A stretch of DNA of 64,000 bases from Sulfolobales archaeon (GCA_038867615.1 JAWBYA010000001.1:480001-544000); one strand, 5' to 3'. Positions 10,489 through 59,036 are shown, counted from the stretch's first letter. Translations and numbers: made by a program. Notes: generated by a model not told the origin, from the letters alone.

Positions 10489-11331
10489 ATGCGGAGCGGG
10501 ATGAGTGAGAAAGATATAGAGAGGGCTTTGCTCGAGATCCTGAGAACAAGATCTAGGGAGCTTGTAGAGGCTATTCTGAATACCATCGAGACAAGCGATG
10601 ATCTCATGCTAAGACTCGCATCAATAGTCTCCAAAAGACTAGCAATACCCCTTAATGTGGCTACCCAGAGTGATCTAAAAGCTCTCGAAGGCACGATCAG
10701 ATCCGAGATCGCCGGTCTCGGACAGAGGATCACTGGTTTAGAATCTACTTTGAAGTCTGAGGTTTCAAGGCTTGATCAGAGGATCACCGGTCTGGATCAA
10801 AGAATCGCAGGACTTGATCAGAGAGTTTCTGGTTTAGAGTCTACTTTGAAGTCCGAAGTCTCAAAACTAGATCAGAGGATTGCTGGGCTTGATCAGAGGA
10901 TCGGTAAGGTTGAGGGTGAGTTAAGCAAAGTTAGGAGAACGGTTAGGGATATTGCAAGAACTATTGAGAACATAACAATCTCTATCGAGGAGGAGGCCAG
11001 GATTGCTGTGGAGAGGTTTTTAAAAGAGAGAGGTTTGGAGATAAGCATCAGGCCTATCGTGCTTGATAGGAGGTATGAGTTCGATATATACGGCTCGCGC
11101 GATGGTTTCGTGATCGTTGGTGAAGCTAAGACAAAGGCTAGTGAGAGGCTTGTTGACAGGCTTGCAAAGAGAATCGAGGAGGCTAGAAAGAAATGGCCAG
11201 AGAAATTCACAGGCAACGTTATTATGGTGCTTTACTGCCTAAAATACATAGGCGACCCCAAGAAAGCCGAAGAAAAGGGAGTATGGCTAATAGAATCCTC
11301 GAGGGAGCTAACAAAAATCCCCCTGGCCTAG
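10489..11331 (+). CDS. Coiled-coil protein with C-terminal PD-(D/E)XK-like domain
   Basis: Heptad repeats (LDQRITG/LESTLKSEVS), then YEFDIYG...VGEAKT. Confidence 0.85.
   Translation: MRSGMSEKDIERALLEILRTRSRELVEAILNTIETSDDLMLRLASIVSKRLAIPLNVATQSDLKALEGTIRSEIAGLGQRITGLESTLKSEVSRLDQRITGLDQRIAGLDQRVSGLESTLKSEVSKLDQRIAGLDQRIGKVEGELSKVRRTVRDIARTIENITISIEEEARIAVERFLKERGLEISIRPIVLDRRYEFDIYGSRDGFVIVGEAKTKASERLVDRLAKRIEEARKKWPEKFTGNVIMVLYCLKYIGDPKKAEEKGVWLIESSRELTKIPLA
10700..10905 (+). repeat. Intragenic 21-nt-based tandem repeats encoding heptads
   Basis: Repeated gatcagaggat... units and duplicated ggtttaga(a/g)tctactttgaagtc. Confidence 0.8.
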
Positions 11332-55633: not shown

Positions 55634-55915
55634 AGAACATAGGGTTAAGGCATAACATCTCCCCAGCGGAGATATGTGGGATCACGATAGCAAGGTTCCG
55701 AGGTGGTGCTAGAAGCTAAGAATCCCGGCTTAATGCTGCATTCCCACGATCTCCCTACATCTCAGGATCTTTTTCACTTTTTCCTTTCCAGCTGTAGGAG
55801 CGTGTTTAAAGATCTCTCCATATATTGGATAGCATGGATACTGTTCTCCTTACTATCGGCTCTTTTCTCTCTACATATCTTCCCGCTATGTTTATATGCG
55901 TCCTTAAGCCTTTTA

Positions 55916-55939
55916 CTTTCAATTCTATAGTAGATCGAC
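55916..55939 (-). CRISPR. Solitary perfect CRISPR repeat
   Basis: ctttcaattctatagtagatcgac, identical to 5790-5813 and to the reverse complement of 7942-7965. Confidence 0.88.
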
Positions 55940-56121
55940 TTGTGGGGTTATGGATTGCTGTTGAGCCTAGCGGCATGGGGCTTCCATCTACTGAGAGATC
56001 ATCCCCTGGATGGCTTGGAGCGATGCTCCCATCACCATCCAGAGTCAATATTGAGATCAAATCATCACCAAAAACCATTCCAATCAAGGCTTACAAATCT
56101 TCTGTATCGGTAAGAAAACAG
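55916..56121 (-). mobile_element. IS607/TnpB-derived mini-element copy B fused to a perfect CRISPR repeat
   Basis: AGGG|CTGTTTTCTT left end at 56121; TTTGTAAG box; CTGGATGG..GGAGC-GCTCC..CCATCCAG stem; ...ACCCCACAA|GTCGATCTACTATAGAATTGAAAG. Confidence 0.85.
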
Positions 56122-56123
56122 CC

Positions 56124-56530
56124 CTATTTCTTAGCCTCAATACTCCTCGCCTCAAAGCCTAGGTATTTATCGATCATTTTGGAGAGTGTCTCCTGGAGAT
56201 CGTTATCAGCATGGCCAAGAGTTCTGCAGAATGCTACAAGACCGCTTAGCCTTATGGTCTCTATCCTAGCCTCCTCAACAAGCTGTGAGAGCCTGAACCT
56301 GAGAGAAGCCTCCCTAGATCTTAGCTCGAGAAGCCTTCTCAAAAGATCTACGCATTCCTCTCGATACAAGATCTCGCCCTCCCCTGAGCCTCATAGATCC
56401 TCCTAAGATCCTCCTCAACCTCCCTAACAGCCCTCTCAAGAGCTTCAATATTCTCCAAAGTAACCCTCAAAAGATCCTCAAGACCATTACTATCAATACA
56501 CACATCATTCATAGGCGCCCCCCACACCAT
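56124..56530 (-). CDS. Helical/coiled-coil hypothetical protein(s); two ORFs, probably one gene frameshifted at a G run
   Basis: ORFs 56348..56530 and 56124..56369 join if CAG-GGG-AG gains one G (EAQGEGEILYREEC). Confidence 0.55.
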
Positions 56531-56533
56531 AAA

Positions 56534-56603
56534 CAGGCGTCATCAGCCCATCACAACTCAGGGCGGTTTGGGGCCCCCAGGCCCCGGGAGGACGCCATCT
56601 CCC
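56534..56603 (-). ncRNA. Fluoride (crcB) riboswitch
   Basis: GGGAGATGGCGTCCTCCC...AAACCGCCC...GGGCTGATGACGCCT: P1 GGGAG/CTCCC, pseudoknot GGCGTC/GACGCC, GCCC/GGGC stem. Confidence 0.85.
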
Positions 56604-56832: not shown

Positions 56833-57914
56833 CTAGAGGAATGGTCTTTTGACAAGCTCTCTTGTTGATTCTATTAGCCATACTCCTTTTTCTTCGGCTT
56901 TCTTGGGATCGCCTATGTATTTTAGGCAATAGAGCACCATGATGACATTGCCTGTAAATTTCTCTGGCCATTTCTTTCTAGCCCTCTCAACCCTCTTTAC
57001 AAGTCTGTCAATGAGTTTCTCGCTAGCTCTTGTCTCAGCCTCGCCAACGATCACGATACCATTATGTGAGCCATATATATCGAACTCGTATCTCTTATCA
57101 AGCACAATGGATCCGAGGCTTATCTCCAAACCCTTCTCTCTTAAAAACCCCTCGACAACGATCCTAGCTTCCTCCTCGATAGAGATTGTTATGTTCTCAA
57201 GGATCCTCTCAACCCTACTAAGTCTCCTATCAATCCTGGAGACACTTGCTTTCAAAGCGGAAACATCGCTCTTCAAGGTAGAAACGTCGGATTTTAGGGC
57301 TGGAACATCAGTCTTTAAAGTGGATACATCGGATTTCAGCAACCCTATATCGTCTCTAATTCTTAATATATCGGTTTTTATCGCAACCAAATAGCCCTCC
57401 AGGGTTGAGAGCCTCTTATCAACTTGTTTGAACCGTTTGTCCCTGGATGTTCATTCCAGTCATTTTATATTTGTTCATGGTCACATCCGGGGACTTCCAC
57501 CTCTACCCGCAGGATCAGAGAGATCCTGTGGGGTCATGGGCTGCCGTCGAGCCGAACGGCACGCGGCTCCCATCTAGCTTGTGCCCCAGACAGCTTGGAG
57601 CGCTGCTCCCATCGCCACCCGAGACCTGTGTGGGGAGACCCACACCGGGGCCAATATCTTTCAAGGCTTATAAATATCCAGGTGTTGGCGGGAGAGCGGC
57701 TTTCGGGCATGTCGCTCCCAATACTTATAAAAATTTCCAAAGCCTATTAATCCTCACTATGCATATCAAAAAGAGAACAGCCCTCTCTAACATAGTCGGC
57801 CAGTGCTTTGATCGCTTCAGCAATCATTCTAAGATCCTCTGACCTTGCCTCTTCAAGAGCCCTCTTAACGGCTTTCTCAACGATCTCCTCGAGGATTTTC
57901 AGATCTACGGACAT
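56833..57914 (-). pseudogene. Coiled-coil + PD-(D/E)XK-like paralog split by MITE copy C
   Basis: 5' part MSVDLKILEE...DYVREG (57914-57781) and 3' part FKQVDKRL...; C-terminus nearly identical to 10489..11331. Confidence 0.9.
57434..57780 (-). mobile_element. Full-length IS607-type MITE copy C (347 bp)
   Basis: AGGG|CTGTTCTC...ACAAACG|G ends; removal restores the ORF; internal TATA boxes; TnpB-tail-like LDGSRVPFGSTAAHDP; several hairpins. Confidence 0.9.
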
Positions 57915-58082
57915 CAGCGTACCAATAGTTAGTGCTTCTCTAAAACTTATATAAGCCGGGCAAGAAGGATCGCATTGAATCTATAGATCTTGGGGCTTGG
58001 GATGCGTTACTGGTTTTTGGTAACGCGCCCTGCTGAGGGCTTGCTGTGTTGCTGAAAAATATATTGGTTCACGTGATCGGTA

Positions 58083-59036
58083 TTGTGGCTGGTTGGGATG
58101 GTTGGGGTTAGGGATTTTAGTATCGAGATCGCTGGGATTGTTGAGAGGGTTAGGGATTCGGTTATAACCGTTGTTGTTGAGGCCATAGATCCTTTATCAA
58201 TGCTTGAAGCCCCTGTTAGGGGTGTTGGTTCTGGCTTCATAGTTGGTGAGGATCTCGCTCTAACGAATAGCCATGTTGTTGGCTCTGCTATCGAGGCTAG
58301 GGTTATCTATAGCGATGGTGAGGTTGGTGTTGGCAGGGTTCTTGCCAGGGATCCTTACAGGGATCTAGCCCTCCTCGAGGTTGAGAGTAGGGGTAGGCGT
58401 GTTAGGATGGGTGATTCTGATAAGGTCAGGATAGGAGAGCTTGTAATAGCCCTCGGATCCCCTCTCGGGATGCCTGGACCCTCGGTAACGCTCGGTGTTG
58501 TTAGTGCTAGGGGTAGGACTATTGTTGCTGATGAGGGGAGAATCGTTCTCGAAGATCTCATACAGACAGACGCTGCAATAAACCCAGGCAACAGCGGTGG
58601 TCCTCTAATCAACATGGACGCCGAGGCTATAGGCGTCACAACAGCCATGATCCCATTCGCACAGGGAATAGGCTTCGGAATACCCATAAACCATGCCAAG
58701 AGATTCATAACACTGATCTCTAAATACGGGAGACCAGTGAGAGCATGGATCGGTGTCTTCGTAGCACCACTAACACCAGAGATCGCGAGAATGATGGGGC
58801 TCGAAAAAGCAAAAGGAGTAGTTGTCATCAGAACAATCCCCGGAAGCCCTGCAGAAGCCGTCGGAATAAGGAGGGGTGATGTGATCCTCAAGGCAGGGGG
58901 TAGGGAGATCTCAACGCCTGGGGATCTGAGAAACACTATAGAGGATAGCATAGATAGGGGAGAGATCGAGATAGAGCTTGTTAGAAGAGGCTATGTAAGG
59001 GTAGTGAGCGTTCCAATCATTATCGAAGAGCTTTGA
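58083..59036 (+). CDS. HtrA/DegP-like serine protease with PDZ
   Basis: TNSHVV, DLALL, IQTDAAINPGNSGGPL. Confidence 0.95.
   Translation: MWLVGMVGVRDFSIEIAGIVERVRDSVITVVVEAIDPLSMLEAPVRGVGSGFIVGEDLALTNSHVVGSAIEARVIYSDGEVGVGRVLARDPYRDLALLEVESRGRRVRMGDSDKVRIGELVIALGSPLGMPGPSVTLGVVSARGRTIVADEGRIVLEDLIQTDAAINPGNSGGPLINMDAEAIGVTTAMIPFAQGIGFGIPINHAKRFITLISKYGRPVRAWIGVFVAPLTPEIARMMGLEKAKGVVVIRTIPGSPAEAVGIRRGDVILKAGGREISTPGDLRNTIEDSIDRGEIEIELVRRGYVRVVSVPIIIEEL

Follow-up and report, generated by a model that had tools for sequence, protein, structure and literature searches.

Elements of the IS607 family (IS607, IS1535, ISC1926) lack terminal inverted repeats and target duplications, insert at G-rich (G)GG targets and have GG at either junction, and encode a serine recombinase with a MerR-like helix-turn-helix (HTH) followed by tnpB (PMC6188088). 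In the same work, Chen et al. 2018 place GG at the IS607 termini as well as in the target, with (G)GG preferred. The element described here shares the properties of ends and target, and its presumed parent shares the gene order. Unlike these insertion sequences, however, our copy carries no genes and has a GC left junction, and the two GGs flanking it are already neighbours in the empty site and do not go back to a single common GG. A second point of comparison is the bacterial CboIStron, which carries a group I intron together with tnpB and whose TGGG target doubles as the TAM for CboTnpB (10.1101/2023.11.20.567912). Its omegaRNA overlaps the right end (RE) and TnpA-less derivatives exist, both with counterparts here; the convergence of TnpA target and TAM on TGGG would be mirrored in our family by a putative N-GG-(N)G motif. 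In contrast to CboIStron, our element is archaeal, has no intron (no Rfam match), lacks both tnpA and tnpB, and is known from sequence alone.

PATE-like elements (Meers 2023 preprint, PMC10055086) are likewise gene-less, minimal and non-autonomous, keep the transposon ends and often retain an omegaRNA, which then depends on a TnpB supplied in trans from another locus. They are mobilised by Y1 transposases via single-stranded DNA, whereas here the ends are those of a serine-recombinase element and no Y1 match was found in the genome. SisTnpB1 of Sulfolobus islandicus is, like the TnpB considered here with its putative guide RNA, a thermophilic crenarchaeal protein with an RE-derived guide RNA, but it uses an AT-rich TTTAA TAM deduced from IS200/IS605 left-end (LE) alignments (10.1101/2023.03.06.531077); the lineage here is flanked by G runs and linked to an IS607-type tnpA. 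Gene-less omegaRNA elements and TnpA-less IS607 derivatives are thus already described, and what is new is the member of an archaeal lineage and a junction geometry that goes beyond the textbook scheme. In a partial literature search, confined to main texts, we found no guide-RNA-bearing miniature IS607 derivatives described in archaea.

Results

A 347-nt insert splits a coiled-coil gene

We analysed a 64,000-nt stretch of DNA from a Sulfolobales archaeon (GCA_038867615.1, JAWBYA010000001.1:480001-544000), referred to as the window and numbered from its first nucleotide. The ORF list of the window contains a minus-strand ORF at 57747-57914 that enters the insert and then stops, and a second minus-strand ORF at 56833-57390, whose reading frame is open upstream as far as 57432 (Table 1). 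An initial annotation of this DNA had proposed that deleting 57434-57780 rejoins one ORF, that the ends are thereby fixed to within one G, and that an uninterrupted allele should exist in relatives or reads, with orthologues reading YVREGFKQ across the junction. Searching 41 related genomes, we obtained exactly such an orthologue in a genome of the same genus (G003), where a single, uninterrupted ORF of 251 aa on the minus strand (L032:1498-2253) reads ...ALTDYVREGFKQVDKRLSTLEGYLVAIKTD... / ...YVREGFKQVDKRL... across the insertion site, including YVREGFKQ, and is 87% identical to the 3' part of the host gene over 199 aa. The G003 DNA aligns with both window junctions; it carries a run of four G ahead of TTCAAAC, in place of the GGG[insert]GG TTCAAAC of the window. 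The insert is therefore 347 nt long with ends ambiguous by exactly one G, corresponding to 57434-57780 or equally 57435-57781.

For 57100-58100 we also examined contigs from four public metagenomes of hot springs or sediments (runs X4-X7). A single contig of run X7, with a depth of 5.3, joins 57433 to 57781 and skips 347 nt, with one letter fitting on either side, and further X7 contigs span the filled junction; within this interval, X4, X5 and X6 provided no contig with a comparable joint. As the insert-skipping contig additionally carries a 42-nt difference in repeat number, it probably stems from a G003-like relative and does not reflect a polymorphism within the strain. In the coiled-coil repeat region of the host gene (57254-57387), metagenome contigs show gains or losses of 42 nt, which suggests that the repeat number varies among relatives.

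The insert and the host gene have the same orientation. Read in the sense of tnpB, the insert starts with GCTGTTC... and ends with ...GGGACAAAC. Pfam and NCBIfam searches with the 3' part of the host gene gave only sub-threshold coiled-coil matches. An intact 280-aa paralogue of the split gene is encoded at 10489-11331 on the plus strand of the window, with 67% identity over the C-terminal 160 residues. The presence of the insert accounts for the split coiled-coil gene in the annotation.

Table 1. Coordinates of the insert, its host gene, the TnpB-only parents and the insertion sites compared with empty alleles (window positions unless a contig or locus is named; query, the 347-nt insert)
Feature	Coordinates or locus	Strand	Basis or remarks
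Host gene, 5' part	57782..57914	-	44 codons plus two bases; ORF list, orthologue L032:1498-2253
Host gene, 3' part	56833..57433	-	Coiled-coil protein; no curated family
Non-autonomous element, 347 nt	57435..57781 (equally 57434-57780)	-	G003 empty site, X7 joint, family alignment, flank logos
Left half of target tetranucleotide (GG)	57782..57783	-	5' of left end; part of presumed TAM
Right half of target tetranucleotide (GG)	57433..57434	-	Directly 3' of right end
Left-end module, ~61 nt	57720..57781	-	Common to TnpB-only elements (blastn query 287-347)
Second TATA-like box, TTTTTATAAG	57724..57733	-	In left-end module; most aligned copies have CATG instead of TATA
TATA-like box, ATTTATAAG	57667..57675	-	~45 nt upstream of first putative omegaRNA stem
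omegaRNA-like scaffold, four predicted stems	57435..57625	-	tnpB C-terminal coding region and right end of parent
Candidate guide flank	57415..57432 (may start at 57434)	-	Position only, by analogy with published TnpB omegaRNAs
TnpB-only parent	C1:784-2280		PF07282 at C1:985-1179; query 1-187 at C1:784-970, 287-347 at C1:2220-2280
TnpB-only parent	C2:203165-204653		PF07282 at C2:203360-203554; query 287-347 at C2:204594-204653
Conforming insertion site	Window		Empty GGGG (G003)
Conforming insertion site	L095		Empty GGGG
Conforming insertion site	G000 C1:10699		Filled GG/AG; empty GGGG in G003, AGGG in G002
Conforming insertion site	L059		Empty GTGG
Conforming insertion site	L054		Empty GGGG in two genomes; 4-nt indel 2 nt away
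Conforming insertion site	L069		Filled GG/TG, empty GGTG; 1-nt indel 7 nt away
Non-conforming insertion site	L003 (G000 C1:74100)		Off by +1 in GGGAGGAG run
Non-conforming insertion site	L043		Too diverged to judge

The insert belongs to a repeat family of the genus

The assembly to which the window belongs (G000; 2.22 Mb in 28 contigs, 94% complete) yielded 46 blastn matches to the 347-nt query and 42 in a second genome search, well above what chance would give. Thirteen of these copies are full length, extending from query position 1-3 to 338-347, and upon alignment with 40 nt of flank on each side the similarity ends at the same positions in all 13. The copies of this genome are 67-89% identical to the window copy. 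Matches were likewise found in all five other genomes of the genus: G002 and G003 contain many full-length copies, the match in G001 is limited to the first ~183 nt, and those in G004 and G005 to positions ~51-148. The closest relative of the window copy (95%) is a G003 copy at a non-orthologous site, where G000 carries no insert and where the junction bases are too diverged to be scored.

The initial annotation had termed the insert a MITE. In the strict sense this name implies terminal inverted repeats and a target-site duplication, and the insert has neither; we hence describe the element as miniature and non-autonomous only. A shorter, degenerate copy of the family lies nearby in the window (55941-56040, 73% over 100 nt), and the ORF overlapping it (55806-56087, minus strand) contains the TnpB-tail-like stretch ...VDGSPMPLGSTAIHNP...; this may be one of the two further copies, A or B, mentioned in the annotation. 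Elsewhere in the genome, ~330 nt separate a full-length miniature (G000:C1:10699-11034) from a tnpB belonging to another lineage (C1:11364-12698), and this second lineage is also found at C6:23920-25299 and, split, at C1:50538-51744.

Searching Rfam with the whole window at gathering thresholds retrieved no family for the insert and only a tRNA and a fluoride riboswitch elsewhere. The riboswitch aptamer (RF01734; 56527-56611, minus strand, 46.9 bits, above the gathering score) is situated at the edge of a ~680-nt stretch (55913-56592) that gave no alignment to the orthologous region of G003.

TnpB-only relatives in the same genome account for the interior of the insert

The TNB domain of TnpB/Cas12f (PF07282) has five matches in the genome, two of which lie between ends of the family (Table 1). 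The tnpB on contig C1 is an uninterrupted frame of 474 codons (G000:C1:754-2175, minus strand), and the one on C2 is split by a frameshift. The C1 protein is a TnpB based on its matches to PF07282 (5.7e-11) and to TIGR01766 above the cut-off, with an additional match to NF040570 (5e-24, below the cut-off) and one to the Cas12f1 structure 9i8y (2.3e-4). The D, E and D motifs AVDVNE, LEDLGD and HRDVVA are present by eye. Its ORF ends with ...GGDGSSAPSHPGLILDGSPMPLGSTAAHEPTG..., and the same tail is still encoded by the insert, in line with the C-tail-like reading noted from the window sequence.

On its minus strand, the insert is composed of a 61-nt left end, a middle part of ~100 nt that contains AT-rich boxes, and ~187 nt from the very end of the parent, comprising the tnpB tail and the right end. 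Judging by these matches, the interior of the insert goes back to a TnpB-only relative in its own genome. Both the tnpB-bearing parents and the tnpB tail with right end in the insert fit the IS607 pattern of an accessory tnpB whose omegaRNA extends over the tnpB 3' end and the right end. In the TnpB-only lineage (G000:C1:754-2175 and L074-L078), the element contains no stop codon for tnpB, and the frame reads past the right end (..NIQGQT) into the flank, such that the C-terminus varies with the insertion site. The tnpB of a complete IS607 copy stops earlier (...MNEYK), which appears to result from one extra A in a run of A.

This composition bears on the idea that the insert is an intron-like element, either an IStron-style group I intron or one removed by archaeal splicing, which would leave the mRNA intact and the gene functional. 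The insert does lie in the orientation of the host gene, and IS607-family IStrons that splice at the LE/RE boundaries have been described (10.1101/2023.11.20.567912). Between 57300 and 57900, however, Rfam gave no match on either strand at E-values up to 1, with no group I or group II model, and all 347 nt are accounted for by the left-end module and the region of the putative omegaRNA. We therefore consider an intron to be an exceedingly improbable explanation and return to the insert as a transposon derivative.

An IS607-type element with the same ends

The initial annotation had further predicted an autonomous parent encoding a serine recombinase TnpA and TnpB between the same ends. Such an element, 1953 bp in length, is present in the sister genomes G003 (L088:1426-3378) and G002 (a twin in L089), with tnpA overlapping a tnpB of 411 aa. 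The tnpA of L088 (1471-2124) encodes an HTH_17/MerR domain at residues 14-64 followed by a Resolvase domain at residues 70-202. Compared with the insert, the first ~20 nt and the last ~70 nt match, with the right end being 90% identical over 70 nt and the left end of L088 73.5% over 64 nt. The ends of the insert, GCTGTT... and ...CAAAC, are not inverted repeats. Because the ends are common to a serine-recombinase element, we assign the family to the IS607 type; to the extent that shared termini define a family, the insert is an IS607-type element. Furthermore, the TnpB of L080, which is related more distantly to the parent protein (68% identity), is encoded directly downstream of a gene with MerR-HTH and Resolvase domains, and a search of the 41 genomes with this TnpA gave strong matches in all five other genomes of the genus.

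The assembly of the window itself (94% complete) holds no intact IS607-type tnpA, only a 46-codon remnant with a stop, which makes present-day mobility in this genome doubtful. Its sole Resolvase gene, on contig C23, was ruled out as the mobilising TnpA by its ordinary domain order with an N-terminal catalytic domain.

The L088/L089 insertion site corresponds in G000 to ~700 nt of ordinary coding region (C1:330707-331407) bounded by G runs, and the empty-site search for L088 returned no clean junction in G000. From this comparison, the IS607 insertion in the sister genomes is evidently accompanied by an adjacent deletion of ~700 nt.

The right end is predicted to fold as an omegaRNA scaffold

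We next examined the last ~197 nt of the family in an alignment of 56 non-redundant copies with <95% pairwise identity, chosen from 61 region-spanning matches among 104 blastn rows and originating from several genomes. This set mixes miniature and tnpB-bearing copies, and the tails of the latter are also under coding constraint. RNAalifold predicted 27 pairs in six helices, 14 of them with compensatory changes, for a structure that is derived from the same alignment, in which the MAFFT register of stem 3 is imperfect. Paired combinations occupy 94.9% of the 1498 cells; shifting the 3' partners by 1-3 columns lowers this share to 22.6-50.3%. In the same slid controls, the pairs with compensatory changes decrease from 14 to 5-9 and the cells changed on both sides from 91 to 5-24. 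None of 500 shuffles attained any of five covariation measures, a statistic that is inflated by the kinship of the sequences. We thus take the covariation numbers for the predicted fold as indicative, with the slid controls being clear.

Counting manually from the pair tables, we found 139 G·U cells and 43 A·C cells, indicating that the predicted fold is better on the tnpB-sense strand, as for an RNA. Stem 3 varies between GGATC/GATCC and GGGCT/GGCCC in the miniature copies. Folded individually, the sequence of the window copy gives the same four stems at -85.7 kcal/mol (z -2.14, 7 of 200 shuffles being as good), a prediction only modestly better than shuffled sequence. It contains inverted repeats at 57439-57450/57483-57494 and 57506-57516/57522-57532, and its last stem closes 4 nt short of the element boundary. 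In published descriptions (10.1101/2023.11.20.567912; PMC10055086), omegaRNAs extend over the 3' end of tnpB and the right end and run on into the flank as guide. The predicted right-end fold fits an omegaRNA scaffold that ends at the element boundary.

Three related TATA-like subunits had been noted within the insert. Three AT-rich boxes are indeed visible on the minus strand (57675-57667, 57733-57724 and 57754-57744), of which only 57675-57667 keeps a constant spacing within the family: a ATTTATAAG box with at most one mismatch precedes the GATGGGAGC motif by 61-63 nt in 21 of the 41 unique MITE-sized copies. This box is a candidate archaeal promoter of the guide RNA. As the host gene lies on the same strand, read-through is another possible source of the transcript.

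We considered whether the insert might instead be a dead relic, i.e., an IS607-derived insertion in which the fold is merely inherited from the tnpB tail and the TnpA sites and is neither transcribed nor used as a guide. The AT-rich "TATA" subunits would then be direct repeats bound by TnpA and not promoters. This would agree with the missing intact tnpA in the genome, with the age and divergence of the copies, which are 67-89% identical to the window copy, and with a box retained in only 21 of 41 copies. Short, directly repeated TnpA-bound motifs are described at IS607 ends (PMC6188088), and a similar AT-rich unit lies upstream of tnpA in L088. However, compensatory changes keep the pairing among the gene-less copies too, for instance in stem 3, the 139 G·U against 43 A·C cells point to selection on an RNA of one strand, and a serine recombinase works on duplex DNA and would not need hairpins. 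On balance, we regard a relic as unlikely and favour a right end maintained as an omegaRNA scaffold.

The element sits between the halves of a G-rich target

To define the target, end motifs with at most two mismatches were collected from the whole genome and from the sister loci. The 48 unique left flanks show G at -2 in 44 and at -1 in 43 cases, with no preference further upstream. Among the 64 unique right flanks, G occupies +1 in 52 and +2 in 58 cases, and T occupies +3 in 37. Together with the G003 empty site, these flanks bear out the earlier observation of GG at both junctions and no target duplication, the latter also being evident from the comparison of empty and filled sites for the window and other copies. 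As the left flanks support only GG ahead of the first G of the element, the AGGG proposed as TAM from the window would be only the local instance of N-GGG.

Eight filled insertions, a small sample, could be compared with empty alleles in other genomes (Table 1). In six of the eight, the four bases flanking the filled site are contiguous in the empty allele, among them the window site with its empty allele in G003. The filled GG/TG and empty GGTG at L069 favour the register 57435-57781, with an element that starts with G and ends with C. Further searches gave no usable empty site for L002 (left flank only, in G003), L044 (partial match), or L063 and L068 (no match). The empty alleles at the six sites thus already hold both dinucleotides and not one shared GG. 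Under the textbook scheme, in which strands are exchanged over a single common GG, the empty site should contain fewer G than it does here. The initial annotation had pointed out that a strict GG crossover leaves the reading frame of the host gene one G short; this discrepancy is real and not confined to the window copy, being present in 6 of 8 filled/empty comparisons. As aligned here, the element (GC...AAAC) is placed between the halves of a GG/NG target, such that, for a 2-bp crossover, the left dinucleotide is GC and stems from the element, and the right one is NG and stems from the target.

These data also bear on mobilisation by a Y1 transposase, in which case the element would be a PATE-like IS200/IS605 derivative moved as single-stranded DNA, its left flank the TAM read by base pairing and its hairpins DNA structures. 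TnpB-only elements such as the parents are formally classed with IS200/IS605 (IS1341 group), which speaks for this assignment, as do the absence of a duplication and the zero flank overlap, which peel-and-paste would give, and the strong terminal hairpin at the right end. Against it, the genome (94% complete) contains no Y1_Tnp (PF01797) match, both ends are common to an IS607-type serine-recombinase element, and there is no left-end hairpin comparable to the right-end one. Moreover, the right flank is constrained too (G at +1 in 52/64 and at +2 in 58/64), a requirement that IS605 insertion lacks. Such an origin is in our view very unlikely, and we discuss the junctions below as products of an IS607-type recombinase.

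In the preprint by Zedaveinyte (2023), a donor with a GC core gave non-matching GC (LE)/GG (RE) junctions, the pattern of the natural copies here, and mismatched cores abolished excision (10.1101/2023.11.20.567912). It is conceivable, although somewhat doubtful, that non-identical junction dinucleotides are the natural outcome of transposition in the archaeal IS607 lineage. In that case, GC would be carried at the LE side of the circle, which would integrate into the second half of the GG/NG target. Since excision was lost with mismatched cores in the only system examined, miniature copies could be locked in once inserted.

Discussion

We consider it likely that an IS607-family element gave rise to the insert as a miniature, gene-less derivative with an omegaRNA scaffold, moved and used in trans. 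The initial proposal of a non-autonomous IS607 derivative is supported by the shared termini, the TnpB-only relative and the covarying right-end fold. The family would have been mobilised in trans by an IS607-type TnpA, since lost from the assembly of the window. The right-end fold would serve as omegaRNA scaffold, with transcription either starting at the internal TATA-like box or reading through from the host gene, and the RNA would cross the right end, so that the adjoining host sequence becomes the guide. The intact TnpB (G000:C1:754-2175), the only one of its lineage, may load this RNA in trans. The resulting RNP would then cut the G-rich empty site (TAM ...GG(G)G) after excision and thereby favour reinstatement of the element; reinstatement by TnpB cleavage of empty sites has been shown for other IS605 and IS607 elements. 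Transcription, TnpB loading and the use of TAM and guide are steps that we infer from such described systems.

If the lineage does transpose with non-identical junctions, non-matching GC/GG products, so far obtained with engineered donors only, would be normal in a natural family, and strand exchange by a small serine transposase would depart from the textbook identical 2-bp crossover. In this case, the TAM of TnpB would consist of four G-rich bases split by the insertion point.

For genome annotation, the family explains dozens of unannotated structured repeats and one split gene. The family also draws attention to a compact thermophilic TnpB of ~410-450 aa, whose TAM is putatively G-rich instead of T-rich and which might be of interest for genome editing. 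For the biology of the genus, three layers are linked in one group of hyperthermophilic archaea, namely complete tnpA-tnpB elements, TnpB-only elements and gene-less miniatures with a putative guide RNA, with clean empty and filled alleles at hand at each layer. How serine transposases select and resolve their crossover site, a point that the one detailed study of IS607 did not settle, can be approached through these alleles as a natural data set.
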